A stretch of DNA of 63,966 nucleotides, filler included, from Rhizaria sp. SCN 62-66 (taxonomy: Eukaryota), in the NCBI GenBank assembly GCA_001724265.1. It is 4 parts of 4 records of this genome, joined end to end, with 100 filler letters (N's around TTAATTAATTAA, not from the genome) between each part and the next. Parts side by side here need not be neighbours in the genome. Positions count along the whole stretch, not along the records: positions 1 to 18,944 come from MEDY01000471.1; positions 19,045 to 37,919 come from MEDY01000472.1; positions 38,020 to 56,782 come from MEDY01000473.1; positions 56,883 to 63,966 come from MEDY01000607.1. One strand, given 5' to 3'. The notes below the pieces were generated by a model that saw nothing but the letters and a program-made list of their open reading frames with translations, was not told the origin of the DNA and made no database searches. The position numbers and the translations under genes were made by a program. Positions 62 through 62,753 of this stretch are shown here, one piece after another (position 1 is the stretch's first letter; each line of letters begins with the position of its first letter).

Positions 62-2227
62 ATGTCTGACGACGAGTTCCACGACTTTTCCGACGGCGCA
101 TCGGCCAAGCAAGCCGCCCGCGCCCAACGCTCTGCCAACAACGCAAATGCAAACTCCAACTCTAGCAACAAGCGCGCCACATCTGCCAAGTCCAGCACTG
201 ATGCTGCCTGCAAGTCCCCCGTTGCTGCTGCTGCCCCTGCCCCTGTAGCGGCGGCCGCGGCGTCGTCGCCCGCGGCGCCGGAGCCCCGGTCGATCCTGAC
301 CTCGATCCCGATCGGCATCGGCGCCGCCGACAACCTCGTCGAGTCTGTCGACTTCGAAGGGATCCCGCCGCCCGAGGCTGACAGCGAGGACCTCAGCGTC
401 GTCATTGACCAGACATTCAACGTTACCTCACGGCAGTTCTTCGAGCTTTTCCTCGCCGACCGCGCGATCTTCCCTTTCTCCGAGTTCCACCACCTCCGCG
501 GCGACAAGGACTGCCGCACGACGCCGTGGCGCCTGCTTAAGGCCTCCGACTCCCCCGATGCCGCCGCGACGCTTGCCGCCGACCCGCGCCTTACCGCCGG
601 CACCGTATAGCGCCGCATGAAGGCTCAGCTTAAGGTTGACTCGGCCTTCTCGCGCCTCCACAAGGTCCAGCGCTTGGTTCCGCTCGACGATGGTTTCCTC
701 ATGATTTCCCGTGGCAACACGCCCGACGTGATGTTCGGCTCCCAGTTCGCCGTGACGGACCTCTGGCGGCTGCGTGACGTGCCCGGCGCGCGCCAGTGCC
801 GGCTCGAGATCTCGCTCGGCGGCGCTTTCCCCGACGCCGGGTGGGCCGTGCGGATGCTGATGCCCGTCATCACGTCGCGCATCAAGAACGAAGGGCAGGA
901 GATGTGGATGCGGTGGGCCGAGGTCGCCAAGCTCCGCGTCGGCAAGCTGGCGCACGAGCTCACTAACAACAGCAACAGCAGTAACAACGACTCGAGTAAC
1001 AGCGGAAGCAACAGCAGCAGCTCGAGCAATAACAGCTCCAGCGCGACTGCTGCTGCTGCTGGCAAGAGTCCTGCCTCAAGCAACCCTTAGATCTCCACTT
1101 CCTTCTCATCGGCTTCCTCTGCGGCAGCCAAGAGCGCCGGCACGGCTGGCACACGCCTCGGCTCCGGCAGCGTCTCCGAAGATGACGATCCGGCCCGCCG
1201 CACCGCGCCCTCCACCAGCGTGCCGTCGTCGTCCCTGGTCGCCTCGCGCGGCGGCTGCGTGCTGCTTGAGGACGACCCCGCCGTTGAGGGTCTTAGTGAC
1301 GTCGAGGAAGCGCGCGAGCGGACGCTGCAGAAGCTCAAGGCGATTGAGAACGCGGCGTCCGACGCCGAGGTGGGCGAGGAAGAGCGCCGCCAGCAGGAGG
1401 CGTTTATTCGGGCACAGGTGCGGGCGCAGCAAGCGGCGATCGCAGCGCGCGAGCGCGAGAAGCAGCTGCTGCGCGAGCAGTTGGCCGCGCAGGAGGCCAA
1501 GAAGAAGGCCATCGCCGAGCAAAAGCGCCAGGCGGCCGTGGCGGCAGCTGCTGCGGCGGAGAGCGGCGGCACTGTCACAAGCTCCAAAGCCATCGACGCA
1601 CTCCGTCTCTCGTCTTCGTCTAACGCCAACGGCAGTGGCAGCGGTGGCGCGGGCAGCGTCAAGAGCCCCGCGTCTGGCCCCGCGAGCGCGCCCGCCGGGA
1701 GCGACGACGACGAGGAGGACGACGACGACGACATGAGTGAAGAGAGCGACACCCCCGCCGAGGATGTTGCGCTTATGGGCCCCGAGGAGTTCGCGCGGCA
1801 CGAGCGCAGGCTGCTGCGGCGGGCCAAGGCGCGCCGCCAACGCACGCGCCGCCTCATCAAGGCCGGCAAACTGCCCGCTAACGCCCTCTCTAGCCCCGTT
1901 CCCAACAGCAACAGCAACAAGAGCGGCAGCACGGCGGCGAGTGCAGCTGGAGGCTACGACAGCGACGCGTCGCCCGCGGCGTCCCCAGCCAGCACCACCA
2001 GCGACGGGGTGAGCCCTGACGCAGCCTCGCCCGCCACCGCGAGCTCCGCCACGGGTTCCGCCGCGAGTTCCGCGAGCTCCGGCGCGGGCACCAACAGCAA
2101 CACGCCGATGACGTTGGCGCAGATCGCGGCCAAGGAGGCGCAGGTGCAGGCCGAGCTCGAGGAGCAGAACAACCGCATGTGCGCGCGTCAGTGCCGCCCG
2201 CAGCAGGGCAGCTGCACCGTCATGTAA
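62..2227 (+). CDS. VASt (StART-like sterol/lipid transfer) domain protein with coiled coil and C-terminal CaaX motif; read through two in-frame TAG codons
   Basis: ORFs 62-610, 617-1090 and 1220-2227 share one frame and are separated only by TAG at 608-610 and 1088-1090. VASt-like motifs lie on both sides of the first TAG (VVIDQTFNVTSRQFFELFL...TTPW; NTPDVMFGSQFAVTDLWRL). The protein ends CTVM-TAA. Confidence 0.8.
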
Positions 2228-3985
2228 GCGGAGCGCGCGATGGAGCGTACAGTGCGCTTAGATGACGTTTGATCGCGCAGGGTAGAAGCATTGCCATGTC
2301 ACGTGTGATGCGGCTTAGCTTAGATGCGGTTGGTATCGTCGTGTCCGCGGTAGCTGCACTGGCGTACAGAGATGAGTCGCTTCGAGAGCGGACGTCTGCC
2401 AATGATCAGGAGTGGACATGAGCAATTATTGGTGTGCGTACATGCACTCTAGCTTATGCAAGTGTATGTGTGTGCATACGTCTGCTTGACGTTGTTTGAT
2501 TGCACCACGAACGAGGACGAAAAGAAAAGAACAAGAGACTTAGTACTAGAACAATAACGACACGTTTGCTGCTGTGTTTTTGTTTTGTACATGTCGAGAA
2601 ACAACTGGTAACGAACATGTGAGTGTACCTGAGATCATTGCTGTTTCAATCAGGTGACTCGTGGAAGCTTGTTGTGGTTTAGCTGTTGTGGTATGAGGGG
2701 TAATAATTAGGTTGTTATTATGAGTGTAAATGTTTTGGTGTTTTATTGTGACGATTTTTTGTTTCTTAAATTGTGTGCTGTTGGTTCAACAGTCGTGTTC
2801 GTGTACTTAACGTCTGTACTGACGGGAATTTATGTTTCTTTTTTTGTTGTTTTGTTCAATTGCTGCTTTAATTGGGTTTGTATTTGTGGTAGTAGCACCC
2901 TGTTTGATGTGACTACCGTGCTAATGCTCCTCATCAGTCAGCAACTGTGATATATCTGAAGACATCGCAGAGCGTTTCATTACTCGCACATATTTGAGTA
3001 TGCGTTCTGAATTTCTGCATTTATCATTAAAACACAATGTGGCACACACAAGTAGAAATCCGGACGTACATGTGTGCGTCCATTAGCTCGAGTAACACAA
3101 TACAACATAAAATATGTCGCCGTATGCATGTCAAGCTACGAACGGTCCAAGCGTGGTCAGGAAAGTCATATGAATTTCAGAAAAAGTGTAAGGCATAAAA
3201 AGTATGCCAACTCCGAAACGATTTCAAACTTCACTTCGATCATAAAAATAGGGGAAGAAGCAATAAAAAATTAAATTTTAAATGAATAAAATACAATGGA
3301 TAAAATCCCCAAATTTATTATGTTGTATTTAGGTTGATAATCATTCGTGTTTGATAAAGATAGTCAACTTCGTAAGATTCTTATAGTCAAGCTGGGACAG
3401 AATTCAGACGTGCAAGCTGAGCTTACGGTATATGACACCGACATACAAATCGGTGGGTGGCAAACGAAATAAAGTTGCAATACTAAATAAAACATTAGCC
3501 CGCAACAAACATGATTACGTGAAAAACAAACAAGCAAACTCGCACACAACACAACAACAGAGAGGGAGAGAGGTTATAGTCCGCATTCGTAACACAAAGG
3601 ATCGTGAAAAAGACGACAAAAAGACGCACACAAAACAACAACTGGACAATTTCGAGGCAATTCATGCATCTACGCACATGACAAAAGCCAATAAAATTAC
3701 TGATAAGATACACACACAAGGATGGCGAACTTCATTTCGCCCATTTAAACCACCGCGACAGCCATCATATCCGTCTCTTGACGGTTATTACAGCAACGCA
3801 AATACACTTTCTCGTACAAAGAGAAGTCACACAAAGTGATGCCTCTCAAAGGATGGATCAGGTTGCAAGCAAAGACTTTGTGCATGCACAGAAGTCCATC
3901 GTTTACACAGAGCGTGCTTACAGTCAGCACACAGAACACACAACTTCGCATCACCTCAACTCAAGACTGCGACCGAGCGGTCTGC

Positions 3986-6900
3986 TTACTGGTTGAAGGG
4001 CGGCGGCGGCGGCGGTGGCGGGTGGCCGGGGTCCGCGTCGGCCGCGGGGGTCGGCGGCGGCGGCAACGACATATTGGGCGCCTTCCGCGTGCCACGCGCT
4101 GTCGAAAACGAGTTGCCGCTGTTCCGTGTGGGCGACGGTGACGGCACAGGGCGCGCAGGAGCAGGCGGGGGCGATGGGGTCGGGCGCGTGACAACGGGGG
4201 GCGGCGCCGCCGCAACCATCAGAGGCGGCGGCGGAGGCACGGACGCGCGGCCCGTCGCGGGAGGAGCCTGGTGATCGTGGCCGTGACCACCCTCGTTCAC
4301 GCTGTTGTGCTGCGACACAGCGCTAACGTGCGCACTCGCGCTAGCACTGGCGCTGCCGCCGGTGTAGCTGCCATTGCTTGCGACTTGGTCGGGGGTCGAG
4401 GCCTCGTTGGAGGACGTCTTAGAGACGTTTTGCGAGCGCCCATTGGCGCTCGAGGTGGCCGCACTGCGCTGCTTGCTGTTCGCATACGCAAACATGTTCT
4501 TTCGGACCGTTGTGCCGCCAGAGCCGCCGCTGGGCGACGCAGGTGAACCGGGCGGGACGAGCGTGTAGATATTGCCGCCGCTGCCCGCGGTGTGGACCCC
4601 GTGCAGCCCGGCGTTGCTCGTGGACGTGTTGAGCGCGCCCAGATTGCTGCCACCGCTGGCAGAGCTGCCGCTGTGGCTCAACTGCGCAAAACCGCCGCCG
4701 CCGCCGCCGGCCGAGGACGACGAGTGCACGAACCCGCCTCCGCTCTGCGAGGTGAGCCCCATGCTCGACTCGCTCTGCTGCAAGCCGCCGCCGCCCGCGC
4801 CGACACCGGTGAAGCTGTTACTGGCGGAGATGACGGAGCTGGCGTGGCCGATCGTACTAGCGTTGGTGGGCGCAGACGGAAAGTGGCCGATGGCTGACGA
4901 GTCGAGCATCGAGCCTTGGCTGAGACGCACTGTGCGGCCGCCGGGAGCGATGACGGAGGATCCGGGCACGACCACGGTCGGCTGCGGTACCTGCGACTCG
5001 GAGAACGGAATCAGCGGGGTGAGATTCACCGTGGGCTCGTTGATGCCCTTGTTGGCTAGCAACGATGTGACTTCCGCGATGGCCTTGTCGCGCGCAGCGA
5101 CGTCGGCCTCGCGCTCGCGGAGCCGCGACTGCAGCGTCTGCAGCGCGCGCTTGTCGCGGGCGGCCTGCTTGTACGCGTCGCTCACGCCGGACATCTGGGT
5201 CACGGACTTAGCTTGGTAGTTTTCGACTTGCGTGACACCGCGGAAAATGAGGAGGAAACGCGGGATAAACAGCAGCGACAGCGATGAGATGACAATGTAG
5301 GCGATGAGCCAGCCGCGAATGATGATCGAGATCTCGGGCGCGAAGCCGGTAACGACGAACGAGACGAGGAACGCGATGACTGCGATGACGGTGAAGTTGA
5401 CGAGCATGAGCCCGATGTACTTGGCCTCGCCGAAGTTCGCGCTCTCAGATCGCGTGCGCACAGCGAGATAGAGGCCAGTGAGCAGGATCGCGCCGTTGAC
5501 AGTAAGGAAGACTGTGGTGTAGACACGCTCGTCAGACCGGCAGAAGTAGCCGACCGAGAAGGAGCTTGAGAGCGCCTCGGGAGTCATGCGTGCAGGCTCG
5601 TGGATCGAAAACACGATGAGAATGACGATGTTGACGATTAAAATGCCGAGAGTGCCGAGCAGCACGTACAGCTCCGTGTACGACGCCTTGCTTTGCAGAC
5701 TGCCGGCGTTAACAATCTGCTTGATGCGATGCAGCTTAAACACGCAAGCGCCGACAATCAACGAAAATGCGAACAACAGCGCCCAAATAGTGGCGTTACA
5801 TGAACCGTCTGAGGTATAGAGCCCATCGGTGAGAATGCCAACGCCGGCAATGATGCCGCCAACGCACATGAGCGCGCAGAGGAACGGCGAGCACGCGCGG
5901 ATGATCGGGTGTGCGTAATTCCACAACACAACCACCAGACACATCGCGGCGAACGCCATGACTATAACAGCTGCGGCGATGACGGCGCCGCGTGAGCCGG
6001 AGTCGAGCGTCCACAGTGTGCGTACGCGGGAGCACACGGGGCCTTCGACCATGACGACGCCAGCCCAAGGCCCTGAGGTGGGGGCGCCGTCGACGACGGT
6101 GACGGTGATCGGCTCGGTGCCGTCGTCGCCGCCGCCAGTGGCCGCGATCGTGAACTCGCCCGAGCATGTGCAGCGGCGGTGCAGGCATATGCCGAGCCCG
6201 GAGCACTGCTCGCACGCGCTGGCGTTGACCGGGAACGCGCCGAAGAGGATTTGTCCGTTATGCGCGGAGCAGAATGTCGAGTCAGTGGAGCACGAGCTGA
6301 TTTCATCGCGGGAAACCTCGGTGATGATGCCGCGGCAGTAGGCTGGCATGGCGTCGATGAGCTTGGGATTGCTCTGCGCACACGCCATCTCTTCGGCCAT
6401 CGTCGGGTAGTCGAGCACAGCGCCCTTTTGGTACTTTGCGCGGAGTTGACGGATGAACTTGTCAGAGAGCTGCTCACCCAAGTCGACGTAGTTGGTGGGG
6501 AAAACATCCGTATAGCCGTCGTTGCCTTCTATGAGGTACACGGACGTCATGAGCGTGTACGTCGCCGTGTCGTCGAGCAGAATCCAATCATCCGCGGCCG
6601 CAGTCGAAACGGGCCGCGGGCCGGCGGCAGCAGGAACGTAGATCTCAAGCACTTTGTTCTTGGCGTAGGTGGGATTGAGGATGTAGCGCATGTTGGTCTG
6701 CAGCAAACGCGCGTTGACGGCCTGGTTGGAGACTTCCATCATCGCTCTGATCTCCGCGCCAGTCATGTTGACGTAGCCGAGGTTGTTGGCGAACGGCAGT
6801 ACCAAGTACGCGTCGATACCCATGACTTCAAACGAATCGTCGTCATCACCGTCACCAGCTGTGGCAGCTGGCAGCGCGGCAGTGACAAAGTCAGCAGATA

Positions 6901-8734
6901 TGTCACTACCATTGTCAGACGCAAGCTCCCCTGCAACGTCGAGACCAGACGCGGCGGCGTTCGCAAGCGTGCTTTCGCGGTTCGCGCCAGCGTTCGTGCC
7001 ACGCGTGTTCGCATTCTTGTTCGCATCCGAAGCAGCAGCAAGGAACCTGTTGCTGCGCACAGCGCTAGCCCCAAACCCGGACGTGGATGCAGTGTTGAGT
7101 TTCGACCGCAGATGCTGCTGCTTGCGCTGGATGGAGCTCAGACTCGTCGTTGAGGCAGTGGTTGCGCGCTGGACGAGGCTCGCACGCAGAGCACCAGAGT
7201 TGATTGCACTGAGGCACTTACGCGGGGGCGCGAGCGGGCACAGCTCGGCAAACACATCCGCCACAAGGCTATACCAACACAATTATGATACAAGTTGAGA
7301 TGACAAGAAGTGATTACGAGTGAGCACAATTGAAGGTAAAACTGACGTATTCAAATAGAGTCGATAAGAGAAGCACCTACATTTTCTGTGGGATATACAG
7401 ATCGATTCATGTACTTAATACATCAAAATTTCTAAGGGCACGTACCGTCCAATAGGACATGGGCCGACACGACAGCCATAGTAGTTTGACATTGGCTCAC
7501 GTTCAGTCAAGTTAGTCAACTCCGCTCGGCCGATAATGTACGTGATATTACGGAGAAGCTTCGCCGCAGGGTCACTGAAATACGAGTTATTCATGATGTT
7601 ATACTTCGTTTGAAAGTATTCTTGCGTCTCGTCGTTAATTGGACAAGTTTTGTTATTTGTTTTCAGCGTCTTGGCGACCCGCAGCACTTGCGTGCCTTGC
7701 GGAAACGGGAAGTTCTCCGACAGAGGTTCGCCGTCAGACCGCACGGGCGGTGCGTACACACTCTCCCTAATAAGTGTCGAACCGTTGAACTGGGCCGAGA
7801 AGTAGTTCAGGTCAATGCCGTAGTTTGTCCCTGTGCCGGCGACGATATAGCTCTGGTTGAACTTGTTCACGAGGAGTTGCGGTGTTGCGGGGACTTCTGC
7901 GGCCGGAAGCATCGAGAAGTTGCCCATAATGATGTAGATGTTCACGTCCTCGTACAGAGCAGTGTCCGTGAACGAATTCAGATCATCGCGGTTGATAAGC
8001 GCGACAATGACATCGACACCGAGGCGCTTGAGCGAGGAAACCTCCTTGCGGAGCTAGCGTGAGTAGTTGTCGATTGTGACCTCGCCGATATGCGGGATAC
8101 GCGCCTCGTACGACTCGACGACAAGTGAGATAAACCCGACAGTGCCGCCGCTGGGAGACATCTTGCGCACAGCAGAACGGGAGATTGTGCCAAGCTTGGA
8201 GGAAATATTCATATTTGTGCTCACGAACTCCAGCGGTGGATTAGCATCCTTAGTCGTTTCATTAAGGTAGTAATTAACATCTTGTAGTTTGGCGTACAAA
8301 TCGCGACCAGAGAGCGCAGCAACGTCGTACTTGGCCCGCTTCATGCACTCAATCATGGGGCCAGCGCCGAACGAGTTGTAGTACATCGAGCCCCAGAGGA
8401 AACTGCCAGCGTCAACAGTGAGGGTTTCAGGCAGGTCCTCACGAATTGCCTCGAAAATGCCCTGTCGACGCGCACAACCACCGAGACACGTAGAGTCCTG
8501 CAAGTCATAGTCGAAAGAGTGTCCGTTGGTGGTGCAGAAGACGTTACCAGAGGTTGCTTGTGTCACTCCTCCGGCCACGTATCCGGACACAATCATGCTC
8601 AGCTGGTGCACAGCCGCCGCCGCAGGGGTCAACGCGGCGGCGATAAGGCACGTTGCGAGGGCCAACATGGCCCAGAGTGGTGAGCGGGCATCGCGCAGGG
8701 GCGTGGCGCGGCGATGCTCGGATGACTGCGACAT
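3986..8734 (-). CDS. Class C (GABA-B-like, 7tm_3) GPCR with signal peptide, 5'-nucleotidase-fold ectodomain, Cys-rich/EGF-like stalk and Pro-rich tail; exons 8734-7446 and 7268-3986; in-frame TAG at 8054-8056
   Basis: 5'-nucleotidase-like motifs: LGGCARR, VDAGSF, LKRLGVDVIVAL, CRVGPCPIGRLVAD (spanning the intron), INSGALRAS, VLPFANNL...MTGAEIRAMME, YLIEGNDGY. Class C 7TM motifs: HPIIRACSPFLC, KLHRIKQI, NFGEAKYIG, LFIPRF. A GTACGT...AG intron at 7445-7269 restores the frame. Confidence 0.8.
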
Positions 8735-10045
8735 TTCGCACTCCAGACTGTCGGATCAGAGTTTGGAGCGAGAGCGGAAAAGCACGTCACAGCGCCACGC
8801 AACAACAGCGCAAAAGGGAGTTGTGGAGAGACCTAGGCGTGAACACGCCGTTGATGCTTGCGACAAGAGCCTTGACCAAGGTAGTTGGCAAGAAAGTAAA
8901 GGCAATTGCAGGAGCAAGCGCAAGGGCGAGAGCGAAGTAGCTCTGCGTCGGGCGACAGAGAAAATAGAGGCAGAGAAATGTTGGCACCGATTGTGAGTAC
9001 GAACAAGACGTAATTGCTAAATATACATGTAGAATGTGCAAGTCTCATGCTTGCGCGGTGTACCGAGCTCCCTTCATGCCATCAGGAGTGAGGACGAAAG
9101 GGAGGAGGAGCAGATCACAAACGCACGGCGTAGCGACTCTCATAAGTTATTTCAGAGGATTTGAGAATACAATACAACATTGCAATTACATCAAACACAT
9201 ATACAACGTATTGCAGCAGGAATGCACGAACAGACAAGGGTCCATGCTCATCGCGAAGATTCCGCTCCAGAGAACAGGAGGAGGTGGTGCCACCGCCTTG
9301 CCAAACTCGGAAACTCGGGCACGGCCATCTAAAACACATGAAAAGAACTTAAATCTTGCTGTGATAAAAAGAGAATGCTGCCGTTTTGATATATATTGTG
9401 TTTTGCACTGTATTAAATATATTAACACCGGTTTCATTCCACAGATATGCTGATATACCTCGTATATCAGCTAAGAGATGTCTTCATAAACATATTTTCA
9501 GGCATCCTGCAATACAACTAAAACTTACATAAAAGATATTGAATAAAATAAATACTAACATGCACCCGATATGTTTTAAAATTATTTTTGCCAAAAATAA
9601 GCATACTTTCACGACGAAAATATAGTTTATATAACTCGTCAAACGTGTGACAGAGAAATGCGATTTGCGACTCTGCACGCTTGCTTGGGGAAGCGAGAGA
9701 ACGCTCTCCAGGGCTACGGGGGATATGAGGTGCCCAAGGCGAGATGGTTGCTGACGCGGTGTGTGCTGCGACTCGAACTGGGACTGCGATTATCACTACT
9801 GTTCGTTGTAACTTAGCGATATAACACTCTTCCTGGGTTAATATTGCACGGATTATGCCATTTCCATTCACTTAAACTTTCAAGACACGCATACTCATCC
9901 TCTGCGCTTGTTCGCCCTGTTGCCGCTCGCCCCTCGTATTAACGCACTGCCTGTCCTGCCTCCGCCGACTCCGCACAGCACCCTTAGCTTTTCCTTTCAA
10001 CTCCACACCTCTTCTAGCCCGCCACTTGGCAGTTGACACCGCGCC

Positions 10046-18394: not shown

Positions 18395-18774
18395 ACCTCC
18401 CTGCCATGATTCACTCGCATGACTTTCGAGTGAGGTTTGCAGTTCTTTGAAGTAATATGATCGCATATGTTTATGATCGCATTTGTTTTGTTTGTACTTC
18501 ATGGTCGATTGCGGTGCTTTCAATCACAATTGCGTATTGCTGTAGTGTGTAACAGACGCCATCATTGTTCTATTCGTTGTTTCTATGTTTAAATTCGTTA
18601 CAAAATGGTTGGTTTTGTGCAAGATGGTTAGTAAAGCCTCCGTTGTAATTGGGGGAATTTGTTTGATAAACATAACTTTTTTAAAGGCTCTATTGATTTT
18701 ATCTTGGTGGCGCGAAGATTATAGTTCCAACCACAAACGCCTTTGATGAAGCTCTTTTGCTTTGCCCTTGAGTT

Positions 18775-18944
18775 TTACTCAGGGGCATCTGAGGGAGTAT
18801 CCTTGCCATTGCTCGCGATCGTCTCGTCACTAGGCTCGGCGTTGCTGTTCTCCTGTGCATTGTTGTCGCGGCCCGCGTCGGCGTCACTGCTCTCCTGCGC
18901 TGGCTGTGATGCAGAGCCGCCCTCTCCACATCCCTGTAGAAGCT
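18775..18944 (-). CDS. Probable 3' end of a gene truncated by the contig end
   Basis: Open, coding-like frame ...SQPAQESSDADAGRDNNAQENSNAEPSDETIASNGKDTPSDAPE-TAA, followed by AT-rich sequence. Confidence 0.4.
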
Positions 18945-22390: not shown

Positions 22391-22423
<33 letters not shown>

Positions 22424-32115: not shown

Positions 32116-32147
<32 letters not shown>

Positions 32148-48810: not shown

Positions 48811-49500
48811 GAAACAAGTCTGACTTGGTGGAAAATGGCGGGGTGGTGAGTGCTGGATCGAATTTGAGTGGCATCGTGAAGTTCCGTCTACTGTGTCTTA
48901 ATAAGACATCTCATTAAAGTTCCAATCACAGAAATATGTTGAAACCACTTAATTTTTTTATGCAAAGTCTCTTCGCTCCGTTTTGACGAAGTAGTATCGT
49001 TGGAGCAACTCTGATTGAAACGCCTCCACGTGGCCCTGTCATTTCTTGATGAGCCGACCACAAACGTGATATCGTTGATGACAAACTGCATTCGCTCATA
49101 TTTTCTCAACAAGGCACTTGAAGATGCAAATTTCTTTGCAGTCTGTTCTATCAATTTATGAATTAATCTCTATGGCCGTGGTTTCAAACGCAAATCAGTC
49201 TGTATACAAGTCATAATCTGTGTACCTGACCATATTCATCTTCATCACCATCAACAAAGATCAATAGTTGACGCTCAACCATAAATTCAAACAACAAAAC
49301 ATACAATACATACACAACCATAAAGACAATTACTACTATATGTCATAATACTGCCATACTCATACATACATAATCTCAACTTGCCCTCAACATTAGGTTA
49401 CAAAAACAGTAAGACCGTTGTTTGTTGGCATTCTGGAGGTTAAATTTGACCTGTCCTTATAAGCCTGCGCTTGCAAGCTCTCCTGTAACAGCGTGTGTGC

Positions 49501-51070: not shown

Positions 51071-51890
51071 AAGGAGACGCAGAAGACGAGCGCAGAGAGT
51101 GGCGCGGGAGGCAGTGCAGGGTTGCTGCTGAAGGGGGCTTGGGGGAAAGAGAAACCGGGGTCTTGGAAGAAGTCATATACGCAATACGAAAAGCAGATAT
51201 GAAAAGTTAGGCAGTAAATTTGTGAAAAAAATATTACGATTCGGCGCTCATGTAGTGTACTTTCCTTGTGTAAAAGCCTAGTGTTGTTTGCAAGGGCAAA
51301 GAAATGAATCTCGCCCTGTCTCGAATGACTTTGGAGAATCGTAAAGCTGGGAGGATACAGCAGCCGCGAAGAACTATTTCCCAAGACGCAGAATTAAGAA
51401 AATAAGCTGAAAACTGTGCAATAAAACGTGGAAGCCAGGTTGAAATGCAATTAACGGTCACCACTGCTCACTAGAGACTGATTTGATACTGCCCAGTCAG
51501 CATTCGACCGAAGTCGCCAGAGTGTGACAGAAACGGCTTTGTGGTCATGACACGAATTGCATGCATACGGCATATATAATGGACTTTGATGATTATTAAG
51601 CAATTGTATTAAGATAAAACAAGTAGTAAACTATCACAGTATCCAATTATTATTCACAGAAAGCAACATTGGCAGCCACACTCAACTCCGTTCTTATGCT
51701 TATGTTCGTTGGCAGTCTCCTCACTTGCGACCAAACGCATCAAGTCAACCTGCACACAAACAAAAGCATCAACAAAAACACACCACGCGTACACCTGGTA
51801 CACACATCATGAAACCCCCTGGTCAGACAAGAAGGAATCTCAAAGGAAAGACATCTCCTATGACTTAAATCCTTAATAAGACTTTAGTCC

Positions 51891-54800
51891 TTACGCGAGG
51901 AGCTCCTGGAGCGCCTTCTGCGCGTCGGGCCCCGCGGCGCCAGCGGCGGCGGTAGCCTTAGCGCCGAACTGCTGGAAGATGGCGCCCACGGTCTCGCGCG
52001 GGGAGAAGTTGGCGGCCATAGGCGAGGGCTTGGGCAGCGCGAAGACCAGCCGCACGAAGGTCGACTTGAACGACGACGATGCCTGGTCCAGCATGTCGTC
52101 GTCCGCGGCCGCAGCGGCAGCCTCGGCCGCGGCGACGGCCAGTGCGCCGCCGGGGGCGCGACCCGCAGCGCCCGCAGCCCCGGCCCCCGCGGCGGCGGCG
52201 GCCTTTGCGCGGAGCGAGTCGACGGATGCGGACGAGGTCACCGAGGCGGCGAGCGGGCCCAGGTTATTGAGGACCGCGGGCGCAAGATTGGCCAGGGTGC
52301 CCGTCTCGAACATGAACGTCACGAGCACGGCCGCGCCGCGGGCCGCGATGGCCTTCTGTTCGCGGTCCGAGACGACGGCGAGCGCGGGAATCCAGATCTT
52401 CTCCACGGCCATGGTCGACATGCCCGCCTGCACGGCGTCGAAGGCGGCCAGCAGCGGTGCGACGCCGTGCGTGAGCACAAAGGCCGCGTAGAAGCCCGCC
52501 AGCGCGGCGTGGTATGCGGGCGTCTTCTTGGCCGAGTAGCGCGTGAACTGCAGACGCAGGATCTCGGGCAAGTACTGGGACAGCGTCGCCGCGGGCAGGC
52601 TCGTCGCGATCGCGCGCAGCAGCGTAAAGCCCGCGCCGTCGAGCTTCGAGTGCGCGTTCAGGTGGCGGAAAATGCCGAGCAGGGCTTTGACCTGTGGAGC
52701 AAACAAAGAGAGGCATTGAAAAAGTGTTGAGAGCATAGAAATGTGAGTGTGTTGAAACAGAACGAGCATGCAAAAAGAGATTAGATCTAACATTTCACTA
52801 TGAATAAAATATATATATATGAAGATAATACAACGCCACTATAAGGCAAAGGATTAGCGAGACGTACCTGGTCGGCGGAGGGTGCGAAGCCCTTGTCGAG
52901 GTATGCAGCGAGCAGGCGCGCGATGGCGGGGCAGTTGGCCTGCGTCTCCCACATCACGGCCAGCAGCAGCGAGGGGAAGATGCCGGCGAAGCTCTCGGGC
53001 ACGGTGGGGCTGAGCTCGAGCAGCTGCGCCAGGACCTGGAAGGTGTAAGGCTGCAGGTCGTTGCACGCCTCGGTGCCCAGGATGACCTCGAAAATGGGCA
53101 GGAAGCAGTTGACGAACGTGTCCACGGTCGCCGGGCTGTCCTTGCACAGGTAGTGGATCAGGCACGCCAGCACCTCGAACAGGTTGTGGTTGAACTTGGG
53201 CTGGCGCGGGTTCTGCGCCACGATCGTCAGCCGGGCTGCGACCTCGCCGATGATGGCCGAGGCGAACGGGAATACGAGCTCCTTACCGACAGACACCACG
53301 CGCAGGATCGCAAGCATGACGTGCTCGTTCTCGCCCGAGTCGCGCTGCTGCAGGGCGCCGAAGAGGGCCGCGAGCGTGTCGCCCAGGCGGTCCGCAATGG
53401 CTGCGACGGGGAGGCGCACTGCGCCGGCCTCGTCCTTAACCGCGAGCAGCTTCTCGATGGCGATGGCGGCGTACGAGTGCACGACGGGCTGCGGGCACGC
53501 GAGCCACTTCTGCGCGAGCGCGAAGACCGTGGGCAGCGCCTCGGCGGGCAGCTGCGAGCGGAATTGGGTGATGAACTTGAGACAGTCGGCCTTGATAATG
53601 GGCTTCTCGTTCAGGTCCGTGGACTCGAGCTCGGGGATCACGGACGTCGTGAAAAAGTCGCCGATGTCGACGTACGGGTTGATCGCCACGGCGCCGCGCG
53701 CGCGGGTCTTGCTCTTGACGGTGAGCGCAAGGACGACGTACATGGCGACGTCCTTAGCCTTCCAGTTGTCGGGCGACGCGGCGGCCTGGCCGAGCAGGTA
53801 CGCGATGTACTGCTTCAGGATCTCCGTCACCTGGGGCTCGAAGTGCACGCACAGCGCAGTGACCAGGTCGGCGGCCGTGCGGCGGCGCGTGTCTTGGTCC
53901 GCTCCGAGCATGTCGCGGCTGACGTAATCGGCCCAATTCTCCTCGAACAGCTCCTCGTCCGACTCGCGCAGCTGCAGCTGCGGGATCGCAATCTTCTCGC
54001 ACAGCGCCGCGAGGTTGTTCTCGAACAGGGCCTTGTACCATTCCTTGCGCGACATCGAGCTGAGGAAGGAGATGGCGGTGGAGACGAGCGCGTCGTACTC
54101 CTCGGCCGCGGAGACCTCAGTGAGCAGCGCCCACACCTGGCTGACGAACGTCTCGACGAAGGGCGTGAACTCCTCCTCGTACTTCTCCGCGAACAGGCGC
54201 GCGACGGCGCACACGGACGTCTGCGCAAGGTCAATAGCCTTGACAAGCGCCGCCTTGGTGGGGCCGCGCGGGAGCGCCTCGATGGTGGCCTGCTGGATCG
54301 CGGGCGCGACCATGACGGAGGCGATGGGCGCGAACCAGCTGTTCATGTCATTCTCCACGTCCGTGTAGAGCTCGAGGAACATGAGCGAGTGGAACGTCTC
54401 CAGGATAAAATGGATGCACGTCAGCACAGTCGTCAGCGCCTCGGGGTTGGTTGACGCGGCGCCAGCGGCGGACGCGGCTTGGAGCTGTCAGTGGGCAAAG
54501 CGGAAATTTAGCAAGTAGATCAATCATGATATATCGGTGAGTAAAAGCTATCTGAGGTTAATTAACGTAAATAAAAGCTGTGGTTCGAAGATTAGAAAAT
54601 ACTTCAGGGTTCAATCTTAAGTTTCAGACACTAGGAGTGTTATAACTCTTGCTTTGGAGTCCGTCCGTACCTGGTCGATGGTGATGGCGAGGATTCGCTT
54701 CATGGGAGGGATGAGCTCGGCATCAACGCGGCCCAGCTCGGCCATAGACTCGCTCGTCTCGCCGCGGACGCGGAAGTGAAACGTGAGTGTGTTGAGCAGC

Positions 54801-55661
54801 TTGAACGCCTTGCGGTTGGCCACGCCGTCGGTCTCGCTGAGGCAGGCGACGACGGTGGACAGCAGGTCGGGCCAGGCCTGGGGGAACTCGGCGTGCGAGA
54901 TGATGCCGAGGGCGTGCTCGAACTGGGCGTCCACCGGGGTTGGCGCGCCCATGTACAGGGCGACAATGCTGGCCTTAATCAGCTCGCGGTCCGACGCAGA
55001 AATGACCTGGGGCGCGGGGACGAGAACGCAAAGAATAAGGTAAGAAGTGAGAAAGTTGGGAATAGAATCGGTGTGCGTGTGTACGTTTGAGGAGTCCAAA
55101 GCAGAACACGAGATATAGTTGATGATAATATACGTGTTATGGTGGTCTTGAGAAGTGAGCCATCGTGTGTTGATCTTTGAAGTAAGAATGAGTCCAAGAG
55201 AAATGTAGTCTGGTGATGAGCGGCAGTGTTGACGTACGTCAGTCTCGCCCTCGTCAACGACCCAGTGACGCATGACATGGTTCTTGAAGTACACTGCAGC
55301 ACGGAGCTTGTTGCTGTCAGACGTGGAGGGCGCCACGATGGCCTGGAAGATGGTGGGGATGAAGCCCTCAGCTGTGAAATGCAGGAAAAGAAAGCACATG
55401 GTGCAAGCGTGTGAGAGGTGTGAGATCAAAGAGAGCGTACAAGGTGGTAGTTCAATTTTATAGCAAGACAACAGTGTGGCAGTATACAATAAGCTCTTGA
55501 AATACTAGAAACAACTATATACAAGCTCTAATATGTAATATGAGCGAGATATAGAACGTACTGAGGGAAAGCTCGTCGAGCTTCTGCTGGGCGGTGGCGA
55601 TGGTAAGATGGTTCGCTGTCTGCTCGAACAGCGTGACCAGGGTCGAAACGGGGTCAGCCAT
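51891..55661 (-). CDS. CSE1: Exportin-2 / CSE1 (importin-alpha re-exporter); exons 55661-55562, 55371-55238, 55006-54671, 54484-52868, 52691-51891
   Basis: Importin-beta N-terminal motif RAAVYFKNHVMRHW, plus EFPQAWPDLL, DTRRRTAADLV, PIIKADCLKFITQFRSQL, VVHSYAA and NPRQPKFNHNLFE. Four GTACG...AG introns; ends in TAA. Confidence 0.92.
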
Positions 55662-55958
55662 TGTGTAAACCCTTCTGTAGGCAAAACGAGGCCGCAAAAT
55701 ATAACGCGTGAGATGTGATATTAGAAAAGCTACAACGCAAAACGCAGAAGCCGTTGGAGAGGTCTGGTGCGCCAACGGCTATGTCAGTCCCCTCCAAACA
55801 AACAGCAAATACACTACTAAGTTCTTCTCTGATAGAATTTTAAATAACAAAACGTAATGCTATGCGCACTTGACTATCTTCTCAAATATTCAAAACACTA
55901 TTTTAACCAACATAGATCGCGTTTATGAAGTCCTAAAATGGGTCGATTCTAGAGTCGT

Positions 55959-56018
55959 TCGGTCGGCTCAGATCAGTCTCGGTGAAGTGACCGTGAGCAT
56001 GAGCAGAGTTCGCAAAAA
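55959..56018. promoter_or_regulatory. Putative ribosomal-protein promoter module upstream of RPL27a
   Basis: TCGGTCGGC (55959-55967), GACCGTGAGCA (55989-55999) and GTTCGCAAAAA (56008-56018), matching the RPL11 upstream elements. Confidence 0.55.
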
Positions 56019-56124
56019 GCCTAAATCATTTTAGGTTGCGGGCAGGGGCAGGTTTTTGCCGCAGACGAGAAGTCGGTTCTGTGTTCTGTCTCTTTTGCAG
56101 GGATTCTCACCCAGACATCTTCTT

Positions 56125-56782
56125 ATGGTACGTATAGGCTTGTTACATCTTGTCATTGTTTTGTATTTGACTGTCGACGCTGCCAAGACCTCGAAAGAGA
56201 CGTGCAAACTCCAGCGACTCACACAACACACATCCCGCCCCACTCTACCTTCTCTTCCCCATCCTTCCACAGACTACTTCTAAGAAGGCTAACCGTCACA
56301 AGCGCGGTAACGTCTCCGCCGGTCACGGTCGTGTCGGTACGTTTCTCTTTCCTTTCCCCTCAAGCCCCTTTTGCACCCCATTTGCCATCCTTTTCCATGG
56401 AAGACCAAGCCTCATCCCATCGGCCAGCTCCGCCTTCCGTCCCTTGGGGCCGCATGCCGCACTGCGTGTTTGGCCCTGCCTCTTCGTTTTGCCTCTGCCT
56501 TTCCCTCTGTTCTATCTCTCACACATCTTTTTTCCTTTGTACCTCGCCTGCTTTATCCCCTACTCCCGCCTCTTGCCCACTTCACTTCCCCTGCGACGAC
56601 CGACTCCTACTTTAGGCAAGCACCGCTGCCACCCCGGTGGTCGTGGTATGGCCGGTGGTCAGCACCACCACCGTACCCTGCTCGATAAGTACCACCCCGG
56701 TTACTTCGGCAAGCTCGGTATGCGCTACTTCCACAAGACCCAGCAGAAGTTTTTCTGCCCCGCCGTCAACGTCAACCAGCTC
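56125..56782 (+). CDS. RPL27A: 60S ribosomal protein L27a (uL15), 3' truncated; exons 56125-56127, 56273-56336, 56616-56782
   Basis: [62 protein letters not shown]. Two GTACGT introns, the first directly after ATG. Confidence 0.95.
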
Positions 56783-56882: not shown

Positions 56883-57083
56883 GCTTTGACGATTATTTCA
56901 CAGAGATTTCTATTGTGGAAGTTACCTGCCGAAAACTGCGTTTTTGGCGTTTTTTAGTTGACGCTACATAGGGGTTATATACTTCCTGGCCTTTCTATAA
57001 AAAGTCCACCAACAAATCAAGTGAAAGCATTCAGCCCTCTTTCATCACCGCAAGACAACCACTAACACACTCCGACAGACAGC

Positions 57084-59627
57084 TCAAATGTCAGTAAGGT
57101 CCTGTCCGTGAACGATGAGATAATACAAATCGATGCCGATTGCCACGATGGACACGAGTGACATGATGATAATCACGGCCATGGGCGCGGCGTTGGGGAA
57201 GAGCTTGTGGAACCAGACTGGGCCGGGCAGCTGGATCACGCCCTCGTCCTGCGCGCCCTCGTCGCCATCATTGTCGTCAGCCTCGGCGTCCGCACCGGAG
57301 GAGCCCTTGGCCCGCTTGCCTTTGGTACCCTTAGCGCCCTTGCCCTTCTTGGTCTTCGCAGCGGGCTTGGCCTCGGTGACTGCAGCAGCAGCGGCGGCAG
57401 CAGCGGGAGCAGGCTCGTTGGTGTCGTCGTCGTCCATGAAACCGAGCGCGCCGGCGTCAAACAGACTCATGTCAAGCCCGCTCTTGCTCACGGCCGCGGC
57501 GGGCTTCGTTTCGGCAGGTTTCGCGCTGGTGTCAAGCAGAGCGGAGAAGCTGGGCCCGTTGGGGTTCGGCGAAGCGGCGTCGACACCGAGCTCCAGGTCG
57601 TCGTCGCTGTCGTCGTCGCCCGCGCCGGCAGTCAGGCCGCGGCTCTCGGAAGCTAAGCCGCTGCCCGACTTGGACGCGGCGCCGGCCTTGCCAGTGCGTT
57701 TCCTCGTGGCGACCTTCTTGCCCGAGGAGCGGGTGGGCTCGCCGATGCGGATGTATTCGTCTTCGCTGCTCTCGCCGTCGTCAGCCATGCCCGTCAGCCC
57801 TGTGTGAGCGCTGCCTTTGCCGGAGCGGGACTTATGGCTGTGCGTGTAGGCGTTAGAGCCGACGTCGTAGCCGGAGCGCGCAACGAGTCCGCGCGCGGAG
57901 GGGTACTTGCGCAGCGCGAGCAGGTAGATGTACGCCGGCAGGATAAAGTTGGTGAAGTTGGTGAAGATGAGCGAGGTCCAGTTGACGAAGCGCACGAACG
58001 CGGTGCCCTGGTACAATAGGAACGACACAGCCCAGGGGAAAAACACACCCCAAACCTTAGCCCAGCGGCTGGAGGCAATTTTGCCGACGTAGAGGTTATA
58101 GCGCATGATGATGCAGAAGATCGGAATGCCGAGCCCGATGGTGCTGAGCGAGAAGATGTACGTCGACACCTGCACCCAGATCGACGAGCGCTTGTCCGCC
58201 AAAAGCTCGAGCACGTTGCCGCTGGTGATGTTGGGGAAGCACATGGCGCCAAAGATGCCCAGGAAGAGGTAGATCACGGTGGAGGCCGAGACCGAGACCG
58301 TGAGCGCCGAGGTAGTGCTGACGGTAGGCTTCTTCTCATTGTACCACGAAGGAACCGTGTCGATGAACGTGTAGCAGAACATGGTCACGCCCACGGTCAC
58401 CATGACTGCCGGTCCGACGCCCCAGGGCACGGCGTCGGGCTGCAGATCACTGGCGGCAAAGTGCGTGCCGAACTCGCACAGCACGACGGCCATAATGGCG
58501 CCGGCGACCCACTGGAAGATGATGTTCTCGTCCATGTTGAGCAGCCCCAGTGGCATGAACATCAGCACAGAAAGCAGGTACCCGGCCGTGATGACGAACG
58601 CGTCGGCGCCGAGTGCCTCAAACGGGATGATGTGGCTCGCGTCGTCGGTGACGCGTGAGAACACAGGGTACACTTGTAGCGCATGTACCGTCCCGAAAGC
58701 CCAGACACAGAACTTGTCCATGACCTGGGCTGAGATCACAATACTGGCCATAGTCTTGACTTGAAGGGAGAAGTTGTACAGGAGCTGAGTCGCCCACTCG
58801 TGCTTGCCGTCTAAGTAGTGCGAGACTAAGGGGCAGAACTCAAGCCGCTCGTTGGAGCTGGCGCGGATGTGGGGCGGCACGCGCGAGATCGCGGCCGAGA
58901 CGAAGATGCTCGTAATGTTGCCGATGAGGGCGAAGAAGAGCAGCAGCAGCGATGTGAGCACGATGCCGCCCTTGGTGTAGGCCAGCGGCAGCGCCAGCAT
59001 GCCGGGGCCAGTGATGTTGTTGACGAGGAGGATTACGGATGACCAGTAGCCCAGCGTGGGGCCGCCGAGCTCGCCGTTGTGGTTGGGGGCCAACCCGGGC
59101 AGTGGGAGGTCGCGCAGCAACGGCAGCGACGCCAGCCAGGCCGCGAAGCCGCGCGGCGAGTCGTGCGAGTCATCGTCGACGAACCCTGCAATGTTACCAC
59201 TCTTCGTGCTCGCGCTGCTAGACTTGGAGCCCGCGTTCACGGGCTTGAAGCCGGAGAGGGAGACCTTGCCGGCACCGGAGGTCGAGAGGTCAGAGACGAC
59301 GTGCTTGGAGCCATCGCCGTAGTAGTTCGCGGCATTGTCGTTGCCAGCGTCGATGTTCGAGATGGTCAGCGCGGGGTTGTCGGCGTAGCGGTAGAGGTTG
59401 CTCTTCGCCGAGGGCGGAATGCCGCTGCGCGCGGGCGGGTGGCCAACGAGCCGGTCCACGAGGCGGCGGCGGTGCTCGGCCGTGTTGGCGGCCGAGGCTG
59501 AGGAGGACAGCTGCGTCTGCGGTGGGGCAGGGGAGTGGGTCGCGTCGCGGGCGGCCGCGGCGGCGGCGAACGCGGCGTCGTCGTCGTAGCCGTCGTTAGA
59601 CGGCGGCGCAAGAGCGTACGTAGCCAT
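57084..59627 (-). CDS. Amino-acid transporter (AAAP/Aa_trans family)
   Basis: TM1 SVILLVNNITGPGMLALPLAYTKGG, roughly 11 hydrophobic segments, and TVPSWYNEKKP. Intronless; ends in TGA. Confidence 0.85.
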   Translation of the reverse strand: MATYALAPPSNDGYDDDAAFAAAAAARDATHSPAPPQTQLSSSASAANTAEHRRRLVDRLVGHPPARSGIPPSAKSNLYRYADNPALTISNIDAGNDNAANYYGDGSKHVVSDLSTSGAGKVSLSGFKPVNAGSKSSSASTKSGNIAGFVDDDSHDSPRGFAAWLASLPLLRDLPLPGLAPNHNGELGGPTLGYWSSVILLVNNITGPGMLALPLAYTKGGIVLTSLLLLFFALIGNITSIFVSAAISRVPPHIRASSNERLEFCPLVSHYLDGKHEWATQLLYNFSLQVKTMASIVISAQVMDKFCVWAFGTVHALQVYPVFSRVTDDASHIIPFEALGADAFVITAGYLLSVLMFMPLGLLNMDENIIFQWVAGAIMAVVLCEFGTHFAASDLQPDAVPWGVGPAVMVTVGVTMFCYTFIDTVPSWYNEKKPTVSTTSALTVSVSASTVIYLFLGIFGAMCFPNITSGNVLELLADKRSSIWVQVSTYIFSLSTIGLGIPIFCIIMRYNLYVGKIASSRWAKVWGVFFPWAVSFLLYQGTAFVRFVNWTSLIFTNFTNFILPAYIYLLALRKYPSARGLVARSGYDVGSNAYTHSHKSRSGKGSAHTGLTGMADDGESSEDEYIRIGEPTRSSGKKVATRKRTGKAGAASKSGSGLASESRGLTAGAGDDDSDDDLELGVDAASPNPNGPSFSALLDTSAKPAETKPAAAVSKSGLDMSLFDAGALGFMDDDDTNEPAPAAAAAAAAVTEAKPAAKTKKGKGAKGTKGKRAKGSSGADAEADDNDGDEGAQDEGVIQLPGPVWFHKLFPNAAPMAVIIIMSLVSIVAIGIDLYYLIVHGQDLTDI

Positions 59628-60326
59628 GAGCAAGGATTGCGCGGGCTGGCTGCAAGGGGTACGCGCAGGAGGGAGTGGTAGGTATTGAGGAGCGCTGGGG
59701 GGACTGAGGGAGAGAGTCCGTGCGCTGCTAGTGGGCTTGTCTCTCTTAGCGAAACTAGCAGGCTGGTAGGGAAACTGAAACGTTACTTCAGCAACAGAAA
59801 CCAGGTGTATGGCGTGGCTTGTTAAAAAAGGTAAGTTCTGGGTCTGGTAAGGGGTAAATATCGAGAATAGTGTGGCTGGGCGGTGAGAAGATAAGGCGGG
59901 AAAGGAGACAGGGCAGGGACGGAATGACGAGGATGAAGAATGTGTCGTCCCTGAGACGCAGATAGCTGCATGTAGATACGCGCAAAAGGGAATAGTAGAA
60001 TTGACTCACAAAGAAACTATTTGTCAAGGATATGCCTTAGTTAATGATGCGACGGCACCGTACACGGTGTGATATTTCGGCCTCAAAGCCTGCCTGCCTC
60101 AGTGACCTCCGCGAAATACACCTTTTGTCCTCTTCGCTCCGAAGAGTAAAAGTTGTCCAGCTAATACCAGGAGTAATTCGTTGTATCAATCGTCACGTGT
60201 CGCGTTTCGTAGTGATAGCGACGTATTACTATCCAAACCACTATTTCCTGAAATATTTCTGCAACTGCCTCACGCTATCTATGTTTTCTCAACCCCGCTT
60301 TGATCGCGTGCTTCAACGGCTAACGC

Positions 60327-62753
60327 ATGCGCACAGCGATGTTGGGTTTCGCCTCTGCAGAGCGACCCCCGCCTCAGCGCCGCACAAATGTGCTCACCGC
60401 GACCGAGTCAAGTCGTGCAACTGCCAACTTTCGTCCTGCGCCAGCCACCCTCTCGCGTCCGTTTGCGCAGTCACGCATTGCTGCGATTGGCAGCAATCCT
60501 AACCCTGCGCACTCGCTCTCGAAAACGCCCGTATCCAGCATCACTTCAGTGCTGCCTCAGACTCACGTGAATTATCATGGTATAGGTACAAACGAGAACT
60601 GTGCGTTTGGCTTCGGGCCTGCGTAGCAAAATGGCGTATTAGGCGCTCCGGAGAAAACTCATCCGAGTGCTGTGGTTGTGCAGCAGTCCACTTATCCCTC
60701 CAGCACTCCTGGTAGCAAGCTTAACAACATGTACAGCTCTGCCTTGTGTGCGTTGCCCGGCTACACTCGGCCCCATACTGCTGGCCTTGATGTGTCTCTG
60801 CGAACGCCGCTCTGCAACGCTAAAACAACGCGCTTCGCCCCCCTGCAACCAAGTCAGCAACAGCATCAGCAGCTGTCACACGCACCAGCTTATCAGCAGC
60901 ACAAGCAGCAGCACCATCAGCAGCAGCTACAGTTCACTGGTGAGTCCGCGCTGTCGTCTCCAGCGCGCGCAGTGCGCGCTGCGTTGTTGGCGCTGTCGCC
61001 GCGTTCGCGCCGGTCTCTCAGTCTCAGTCACGGGCTCGCACCCTTGCCGTACGAGCTGAACGATAGCTATAACAATAACACAAACAACACCCACATGAAC
61101 ATTAGCGCAAGTGCCAGTAGTGATGCAGATAACACAGTTGCTTGCGTCGCCGCCGGTGCATTCTCACAGGCGCAGTTTGATGCCATGTTACAGACGCCTG
61201 CTCCGCCAGCGTCAATGTCATCGTCCTCATCGTCACCTGCGTTTGCGCATTCACTGTCATTGCTGGACACGCGCCTACATACGCTCTCACAGTCACCCTT
61301 GAGCGCCCAGACACCGTCGCAGTCAGACGAGGGATCTCCATCACAATACCAAGCACGGGTCGACTCGCCGACCCAGGCTTAGCTGCCACTGCCGCAACAT
61401 CAGCAATATGAGCATCAATCACACTCTCTGCAGCGGTCTCTTAATGAACATCATTGTTGCATTGATGACAATAACGCAACCGAAGTTGACGAGAGCTAGA
61501 GCTAGAATTATGCAATCAACATGAACTATGCGTCTGGGCACCCCCATTCTGCTTCCGGACATCGCCACTCGTGGTCTCGTAACACTGCACAGCATGCTGG
61601 AGACACTTGTAACATCGATGGTACCAGTTGTGATAGCAAAGACCATGTCATGTCAATCCGTCGTAATGCGGTGGACTTGTTAAAGCAACTTGAAGCTGGT
61701 TTTCACGGTGCTCATCCTCAGGACTTTGCGTTGCGTGATCGCAGCAACACCATCATGAACAGCACAAAGATTATTGTTCGCAACGGTGCCAGTGACGTTT
61801 TGAGTGATTGGTTGGACTCAATCGAAAACAAAGCCTTCCTTGAGCACCTACAACAACAGCAAAGGAAACAAGTGGCCCTAGCAAGCGCAACTGTCGAGAC
61901 CGAGCTATCATCAGAGCTTGACTCAAATACCGGCACAGTCAGTGACATCAGTCACTCTGCTTGCGACGGCATTAGCGAGGCAGTAGTTGCAATGCCGCTT
62001 ACTGACGCTGTTAACCAGGCTTTGGAGTCTGTTCGCCATTCGTTTCTGCGCGTAGCCACGAGTGCTGATAACGCCAGTGCTTGCGAGTCTAACTCTGTAA
62101 CCGTGACTTGTGACGAATCAGAGACAAAGTCACCTGGCAAGCGTCCCAAGTGTTCGCCCCTTAAAGGTGCGATCTCTAAAGGTGCTGTTGTCAGGGGTCT
62201 CGACGCATCGCGTCCACGCGCTGAAGAAGACGCAATCCGTAGCTCCAGCACGACCGCACAGGCAGTTGTGGCTGGTATCAGTTCCTGTGTCGGCGAACCC
62301 ACGACTACATAGGATCGCATTCCGACGCCTGCTATCGTGCGCGCACTTGCCCGTAACAAAGCAGCCACAAGGGCATCTCAGACTACTGCAACGATTGTTG
62401 TGACAAACGTTTGCAAGAGCAAGGACAAGAAGCAAGCCGTTGTTCTCGACCAAGAGCAGCAACAAAATGTCATTCTGCAGTGTGGTGGCAGAGGCGGTAT
62501 CACTGCGATTGGTCTTCCACGTCGTGATGGCGCATCAGCTTCCACTACAGTCGTCGTTGTTAACAACGGCAATGTTGTTGACGCGTCTGCAACCTCGTAT
62601 CTTTCAAAGCACACAATGCGCATGCGTAGACGTGCACTGATCATGCTTACTCTGATTGTCGTGATTGTCGTGGCAATGCTGGCAACGTCTGCATCGGCAA
62701 TGCTCACGAAAGAGTGGTTAGGTCGCGCTGTTTCAGCCTCCGGCCATTACTAA
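60327..62753 (+). CDS. Unknown ~800-aa protein with a C-terminal transmembrane helix; read through five in-frame TAG codons (start uncertain)
   Basis: ORFs 60327-60626, 60672-61382, 61521-62312 and 62337-62753 share one frame. The only stops between them are TAG at 60624, 61380, 61497, 61503 and 62310. Ends in TAA after ALIMLTLIVVIVVAML. Confidence 0.65.

Follow-up and report, generated by a model that had tools for sequence, protein, structure and literature searches.

In-frame TAG codons in a GC-rich protist genome, Rhizaria sp. SCN 62-66: very probable use of TAG as a low-usage sense codon with TAA and TGA as stops

The window analysed here is a stretch of 63,966 nucleotides (nt) from assembly GCA_001724265.1 of Rhizaria sp. 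SCN 62-66 and consists of four unlinked contigs, at positions 1-18944, 19045-37919, 38020-56782 and 56883-63966 (contigs 1 to 4 below), which are joined by spacers of N (ttaattaattaa). The DNA is eukaryotic. A total of 14 genes were modelled in it, corresponding to 16 coding segments and 13,739 codons, and the Pfam families found are VASt, 7tm_3 together with 5'-nucleotidase C, FYVE, WD40, CSE1/CAS, PhyH, an amino-acid transporter and a mitochondrial-type MnmE. The exons are rich in guanine and cytosine (GC), with a GC content at third codon positions (GC3) of about 0.7-0.9, and the few introns measure 144-250 nt, are AT-rich (GC about 0.3) and take the form GTACG...YAG. Among about 15 billion proteins, the closest ones were found to be metagenomic sequences, about 40-60% identical. 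Ten in-frame TAG codons, at 608, 1088, 8054 (- strand), 22239 (-), 45782 (-), 60624, 61380, 61497, 61503 and 62310, span five of the genes, and each of the four contigs has at least one. A first-pass annotation of this DNA had listed the ten in proposing that TAG is translated here, and all of them were confirmed at the sites and on the strands claimed. TAG is very probably a sense codon in this organism, with TAA and TGA as stops, and it is most likely a sense codon of low usage.

The VASt-domain protein gene (62-2227, + strand) encodes 721 amino acids (aa) and contains TAGs 608 and 1088. It ends with CTVM followed by TAA, and these last four residues have the look of what we take to be a CaaX box. 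Codon 183 is the TAG at 608-610 and is located within the VASt domain, where the Pfam match covers residues 113-256. The nearest homologue, P0004, shows 42% identity overall and 60% within the domain. Its alignment is ungapped over this TAG (GTVxRRMK in the window and GTLERRVK in P0004), and glutamate is the residue found there. The TAG at 1088-1090 (codon 343) belongs to a low-complexity linker and is bracketed by conserved regions; beyond it, P0004 and P0121 can be aligned along a coiled-coil region and up to the final four residues (CTVM, CTIM and CAIM), and this conserved C-terminus lies downstream in the same frame. Tyrosine was obtained with MAFFT as the counterpart of TAG 1088 and was rejected as uninformative, BLASTP having a gap-rich stretch at that place. 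We noticed that the gene call of P0121, a relative with 70% identity, starts four residues past the equivalent of TAG 608; both a contig edge and a shared TAG are possible there.

The second gene with homologues across a TAG is a fusion gene on the - strand (3986-8734) that joins a 5'-nucleotidase-like part and a cysteine-rich part to a class C G-protein-coupled receptor (GPCR). Exon 1 (7446-8734) encodes a signal peptide and a 5'-nucleotidase-like N-domain, and exon 2 (3986-7268) carries the Pfam matches 5_nucleotid_C and 7tm_3 and ends with TAA. The two are separated by an AT-rich intron of 177 nt (7269-7445, GTACG...TAG). Splicing gives a product of 1523 aa in which the junction PIGR/LV agrees with the homologues, including P0007. 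The aligned part of a contig from an independent sequencing run (X5, described below) was found to stop exactly at the exon 2 edge, at 7268, where 57 loose letters remain. The TAG at 8054-8056 is codon 227 and lies inside the conserved N-domain. The alignment of P0007 (1331 aa, 41% identity) takes in residues 26-432 and runs straight through this TAG, and the column shows glutamate in P0007, which is the closest homologue, and histidine, isoleucine, histidine and alanine in the others. The public protein library has exon 1 as two standard-code fragments split at TAG 8054, P0005 (residues 1-226) and P0006 (residues 270-439), which bears out the earlier statement that standard-code annotation breaks up the genes of this organism. 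The layout of the fusion gene is unusual in that a signal peptide, 5'-nucleotidase-like N and C domains, a cysteine-rich EGF-like stretch and a class C GPCR (7tm_3) are found in one protein. The same layout was observed in the homologues P0007-P0010, of 1015-1331 aa.

Two further TAGs were assessed with a coding score from a codon model for which 11 TAG-free segments were the training set. Upstream and downstream alike, frame 0 scores +0.46 to +1.06 bits/codon at TAGs 608, 1088, 8054, 22239 and 45782 and the other two frames are negative, so that for these five the claimed continuation of coding sequence in the same frame holds. TAG 22239 (22239-22241, - strand) is located in a gene for a secreted low-complexity protein (21531-23849, -) that ends with TGA. 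It is followed by 235 open codons, and the in-frame score around it is +0.81 upstream and +0.46 downstream. Read by eye in the translation, a motif [SF][LF][IL][EQ][TA]SA repeats on both sides of this TAG. The other gene, on the - strand of contig 3, encodes a giant protein of 2350 aa with WD40 repeats. Exon 1 (46317-46868) starts at the ATG at 46868, exon 2 (39566-46066) has WD40 matches and ends with TAA, and one WD repeat straddles the junction left by the 250-nt intron (GTACGT...TAG). Its TAG (45782-45784) is codon 279 of 2350, sits between WD repeats and is followed by 2071 open codons. Read with the standard code, this locus would split into two genes that share a frame and are separated by 22 nt.

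The remaining five TAGs (60624, 61380, 61497, 61503 and 62310) are all found in one orphan gene on contig 4 (60327-62753, +), which has 808 codons, encodes a tail-anchored protein and ends with TAA. The frame of this gene holds five TAG codons and neither TAA nor TGA, and the other five frames hold 14-41 TAA and TGA codons and 5-8 TAG codons. As TAA and TGA are missing while TAG occurs at the background level, selection in this frame acts against TAA and TGA and not against TAG. Frame 0 gave the best codon score in four of five segments, with weak values (0.09-0.17 bits/codon), and no homologue was found among 8000 scored candidates. Because of this weak codon bias and lack of a homologue, the evidence for the five TAGs is that of the open-frame statistics. 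TAG 60624 could precede the true start of the gene. We also observed a GC3 of about 0.4-0.6 here, far below that of the neighbouring genes, and a much weaker codon bias. It may be that TAG is used mainly in genes that are young or weakly expressed.

Over the 16 coding segments, TAA and TGA were each observed 0 times in frame and TAG ten times. TAG therefore forms about 0.07% of the codons, or about 2% of the number of glutamine or glutamate codons. The absence of internal TAA and TGA had been claimed for the TAG-bearing genes and was found in all five frames, where no frameshift was seen either; internal TAA and TGA as frequent as TAG, the pattern that the first-pass annotation had associated with pseudogenes, did not appear. 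The 14 modelled genes end with TGA in seven cases, with TAA in seven and with TAG in none. A common use of TAG as a terminator, another pattern that it had named as contrary, was thus not seen at these gene ends, a count that depends in part on the inferred read-through. Two of the TAA codons are anchored at conserved C-termini, in the MnmE gene (CIGK followed by TAA) and in the VASt gene (the CaaX-like end followed by TAA), and none of the seven TGA ends carries a conserved terminal motif. The median length of the open frame is 223.5 codons after the ten TAGs and 16.5 codons after the 14 terminal TAA and TGA codons (Mann-Whitney p = 0.0007). A comparison of open reading frame (ORF) lengths under four stop sets gave no discrimination. 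Homologues back three of the TAGs (608, 1088 and 8054), and the other seven are without homologue evidence.

The same codons were also observed in independent assemblies. Eleven runs (X1-X11) from six studies, dated 2015-2025, list the first 9 kb of the window or part of it, several of them with a small share of words. They come from bioreactor, wastewater, activated-sludge and microbial-fuel-cell samples and include libraries of polyadenylated (polyA) RNA. Contigs of four runs from three studies were compared with contig 1, and all four runs match. The contigs of X3, from another study, show 0 differences over 203-1696 and 6184-8434, stretches that include TAGs 608, 1088 and 8054. A contig of X5, a run labelled 'probably DNA', covers 407-1503, again with 0 differences and with TAGs 608 and 1088. 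The strain in X4 has diverged slightly; in its contigs, which span 264-1062 and 7528-8621, TAG 608 and TAG 8054 are both retained. TAGs are thus present at the DNA level in the contigs of X3, X4 and X5.

The divergence of X4 was found to be about 0.4% in coding sequence and higher in spacers, with at least 16 substitutions and three indels in 2286-3861. Among the differences listed, nine of the 12 in coding sequence are synonymous, as are six of the seven located downstream of TAGs (p about 0.004 for a neutral expectation of 0.3) and all three of those downstream of TAG 8054 in exon 1. The mostly synonymous changes after the TAGs point to purifying selection on these regions. Contigs from a polyA library (X8) match 1326-1706 and the region around 7637, both of which lie downstream of TAGs. 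The many 'joints' listed, which have 20-25 letters on their sides and lie in GC-rich repeats, were disregarded, and stretches without RNA cover were not used as evidence. Taken with the homologues that align through the TAGs, the conserved C-termini after them and the absence of TAG from gene ends, the independent assemblies and the purifying selection bear out the proposal that TAG is translated and that TAA and TGA terminate.

Several observations weigh against this proposal. The sample is small, since the 64 kb provide ten TAGs and 14 gene ends, and half of the TAGs are in a single orphan gene with atypical codon usage. The terminator count leans on read-through itself, as the standard code would end five of the 14 genes at TAG; since the two are not independent, the weight rests on the sequence that follows the TAGs. 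There, the synonymous counts for X4 cover the listed differences only. Within the window data no support was found from a tRNA whose anticodon is CUA or from eRF1: ARAGORN found 0 tRNA genes in the window, Rfam gave 0 matches at the gathering threshold, with no rRNA and no tRNA, and the eRF1 gene is not among the window sequence. No TAG occurs in the remaining nine genes, which make up 11 of the 16 coding segments, and a dual meaning of the codon as stop and sense is possible on that count. These TAG-free genes, the very low usage of the codon (0.07%) and the number of gene ends examined (14) are also what an ambiguous code would predict, in which UAG still terminates many genes and, through decoding that is near-cognate or depends on context, is efficiently read through at some sites. 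We regard such a code as unlikely. TAG was observed at none of the 14 ends, and the ambiguous code would require five read-throughs in one gene and two in another that has a conserved C-terminus; with multiple TAGs per gene, near-complete decoding would be needed at each site.

Another alternative is that the TAGs are removed before translation, either as part of small in-frame introns or through RNA editing. The genome does possess an in-frame intron that hides a stop: a gene for a large low-complexity protein of 2734 aa (10046-18394, +), which has no TAG and ends with TGA, is composed of exons 10046-16539 and 16684-18394, and the intron between them (16540-16683, 144 nt, GC 0.31, GTACGT...CAG) contains a TGA and joins two large ORFs (10046-16552 and 16643-18394). 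Furthermore, a TAG at 46067-46069 in the WD40 gene, which is outside the ten, serves as a splice acceptor, and no RNA contig bridging a TAG was seen among the matched contigs, so that editing is set aside on its implausibility alone. The large intron-bearing gene also acts as a control, since it shows that a genuine interrupting stop in this genome comes with a clear intron signature. Neither a GTACG donor nor an AT-rich tract was found beside any of the ten TAGs, as had been claimed, and the real introns are of 144-250 nt with a GC of about 0.3. The ungapped alignments of homologues over TAG 608 and TAG 8054 exclude hidden introns at these two sites, and the missing signature makes them unlikely at the others; overall, we consider this explanation very improbable. 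Least probable of all, and barely credible, is that the code is standard and the genes are pseudogenes or products of assembly or sequencing errors. Random nonsense changes in GC3-rich genes would yield TAG 63-66% of the time, and the contig 4 gene, with no homologue and weak codon bias, could be seen in this light. However, all ten interrupting stops are TAG (p = 0.010-0.016), the modelled genes have no frameshifts, the same TAGs recur in other studies' assemblies as well as in a diverged strain, six of the seven listed downstream substitutions are synonymous and the C-termini beyond the TAGs are conserved. Together, these make pseudogenes or assembly errors unlikely, and the reading of TAG as a sense codon remains the preferred one.

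The mechanism would involve a tRNA whose anticodon is CUA, encoded outside the window, that decodes UAG and not UAA. Most simply, it would be a copy of tRNA-Glu(CUC) or tRNA-Gln(CUG) that has mutated, and an eRF1 with weakened recognition of G at the third position would probably help. The motifs named for the eRF1 N-domain are GTS, NIKS and YxCxxxF (PMC5304391). The sparse use of TAG, mostly in weakly biased genes, fits a recent or still-spreading codon capture.

With regard to the amino acid, two TAG sites are informative in having a close and confidently aligned homologue: TAG 608 against P0004 and TAG 8054 against P0007. Glutamate was found at both, and glutamine and leucine at neither. 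With a flat prior and the conditional frequencies of BLOSUM62 or BLOSUM45, glutamate receives 0.47-0.62 and glutamine about 0.09, and the likelihood ratios from the two sites are 5.5-6.7 for glutamate over glutamine and 36-208 for glutamate over leucine. An imperfect hexamer repeat, GAGAGC-TAGAGC-TAG at 61491-61505, gives a weak hint in the same direction. Glutamine is the most frequent fate of UAG elsewhere (PMC11687900), and the odds between the two residues were tempered from the raw likelihoods for that reason. Judged from the aligned residues, the amino acid may be glutamate, for which we see about an even chance; glutamine is a possible but lesser candidate, and any other residue is rather unlikely. 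The first-pass annotation had assigned the codon 'probably' to glutamine. This part did not find support, as the closest homologue has glutamate at both informative sites, which with n = 2 is a weak indication.

A nuclear code in which UAG is separated from UAA has been described in only a handful of lineages (PMC11687900, PMC5304391), and the organism of this window very probably belongs to that rare class of UAG-only reassignments. The changes described are those of the rhizarian exLh (leucine), Iotanema spirale (glutamine), Scotinosphaera (serine), and Protocruzia and some phyllopharyngean ciliates (PMC11687900, PMC5304391). Iotanema spirale, a member of Fornicata, uses UAG for glutamine, with 204 UAG codons in 126 genes, or about 8% of its glutamine codons, and its stops are 104 UAA and 15 UGA (PMC5304391). 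The window organism resembles it in that the reassignment concerns UAG alone, termination is left to UAA and UGA and UAG is used as a minority codon. Iotanema belongs to the anaerobic metamonads, whereas a mitochondrial-type MnmE is encoded here, and the presence of this mitochondrial tRNA-modification GTPase sets the organism apart. In addition, its stops are dominated by UAA, unlike the seven TAA and seven TGA found here, and the two informative sites align with glutamate and not with glutamine.

In exLh (Sainouroidea), UAG encodes leucine, with 384 in-frame UAG codons in 71 genes (about 5.4 per gene) and 56 UAA and 15 UGA stops (PMC5304391). This is also a UAG-only reassignment in a non-ciliate with UAA and UGA as sole terminators, but there are ten TAGs in 14 genes in the window, a far sparser use, and leucine is disfavoured by 36-208 to 1. 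Precedents for UAG as glutamate, the residue favoured here, are found in the oligohymenophorean ciliate PL0344, where UAG is glutamate and UAA lysine (PMC11687900), and in Blastocrithidia, where UAR is glutamate (PMC12153298). Both have reassigned UAA as well, whereas UAA ends seven of the 14 genes in the window, conserved C-termini among them. In phyllopharyngean ciliates UAG is leucine or glutamine, in Protocruzia tuzeti glutamine and in Scotinosphaera serine (PMC11687900). These share with the window the split of UAG from UAA and the use of UAA as a stop. They differ from it, the ciliates and the green alga alike, in that the window is GC-rich (exon GC3 about 0.8), has AT-rich introns of 144-250 nt and uses TGA stops as often as TAA.

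In the open-access articles searched, we found no UAG reassignment described for a non-ciliate protist that is GC-rich or from wastewater. A fuller reading, which we put forward tentatively, is that UAG encodes glutamate, with UAA and UGA as stops, in a deep-branching, uncultured, aerobic and GC-rich eukaryote of wastewater reactors that would be at an early stage of codon capture, UAG forming about 2% of the glutamate codons and being concentrated in weakly expressed or fast-evolving genes. Should glutamate be correct, this would be a variant not met in the literature compared. Each added case of a UAG-only change bears on the question of why UAA and UAG usually change jointly, and the present one, if true, would lie outside the ciliates, in a GC-rich genome that has retained both TAA and TGA as stops. 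A very low usage of UAG is the state expected soon after a suppressor tRNA emerges, and early steps of codon capture could therefore be observable here. The public reactor and wastewater data, with their polyA RNA, put the genome, the tRNA set, eRF1 and a metaproteomic test within reach, no culture being needed. As a practical effect, standard-code gene calling already splits genes of this organism in public protein collections, P0005 and P0006 being the example.

Among the TAG-free genes, the mitochondrial-type MnmE/TrmE GTPase gene (24052-27520, +) has at least two exons with Pfam matches to TrmE_N, MnmE_helical and MMR_HSR1 and ends with FCIGK followed by TAA. The earlier identification of MnmE was found to be sound, given the TrmE_N, MnmE_helical and GTPase domains and the CIGK motif at the end. 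The CSE1/exportin-2 gene (51891-55489, -) consists of three ORF pieces with Pfam matches to IBN_N, Cse1 and CAS_CSE1, its introns are of 178-185 nt (GTACG...CAG) and it ends with TAA. An Atlas search with CSE1 gave generic eukaryote clusters only, and one with the GPCR fusion protein gave no usable match. Two scans of prokaryote genome contigs for further DNA of the organism or its relatives gave no match. A metagenome scan with CSE1 yielded three loci (L001, L002 and L003). L002 is from the same species, with 99% identity, and corresponds to 53971-56234 of the window. The CSE1 of L001 (1-3273), from another metagenome, is 37% identical and intronless, with 972 codons, a GC3 of 0.80, no TAG and a TAA end, and is therefore uninformative on the code; the compositional style of this locus resembles that of the window organism. 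The CSE1 of L003 is 29% identical.

Partial ribosomal protein genes were recognised by eye at contig ends, at 37259-37919 (+) and 56171-56782 (+); one is uL5/RPL11-like and has two exons, the other is uL15/RPL27a-like, and both may be of use in placing the organism. On contig 4, a GC-rich, protein-like sequence (62850-63140, -) was observed past the TAA of a gene for a type-I membrane protein (63138-63965), where the frame stays open for 95 codons. By eye, another frame appears to read KEPVEGFHSNGKE... in this region, which could be a long 3' untranslated region, an assembly indel or a further exon.

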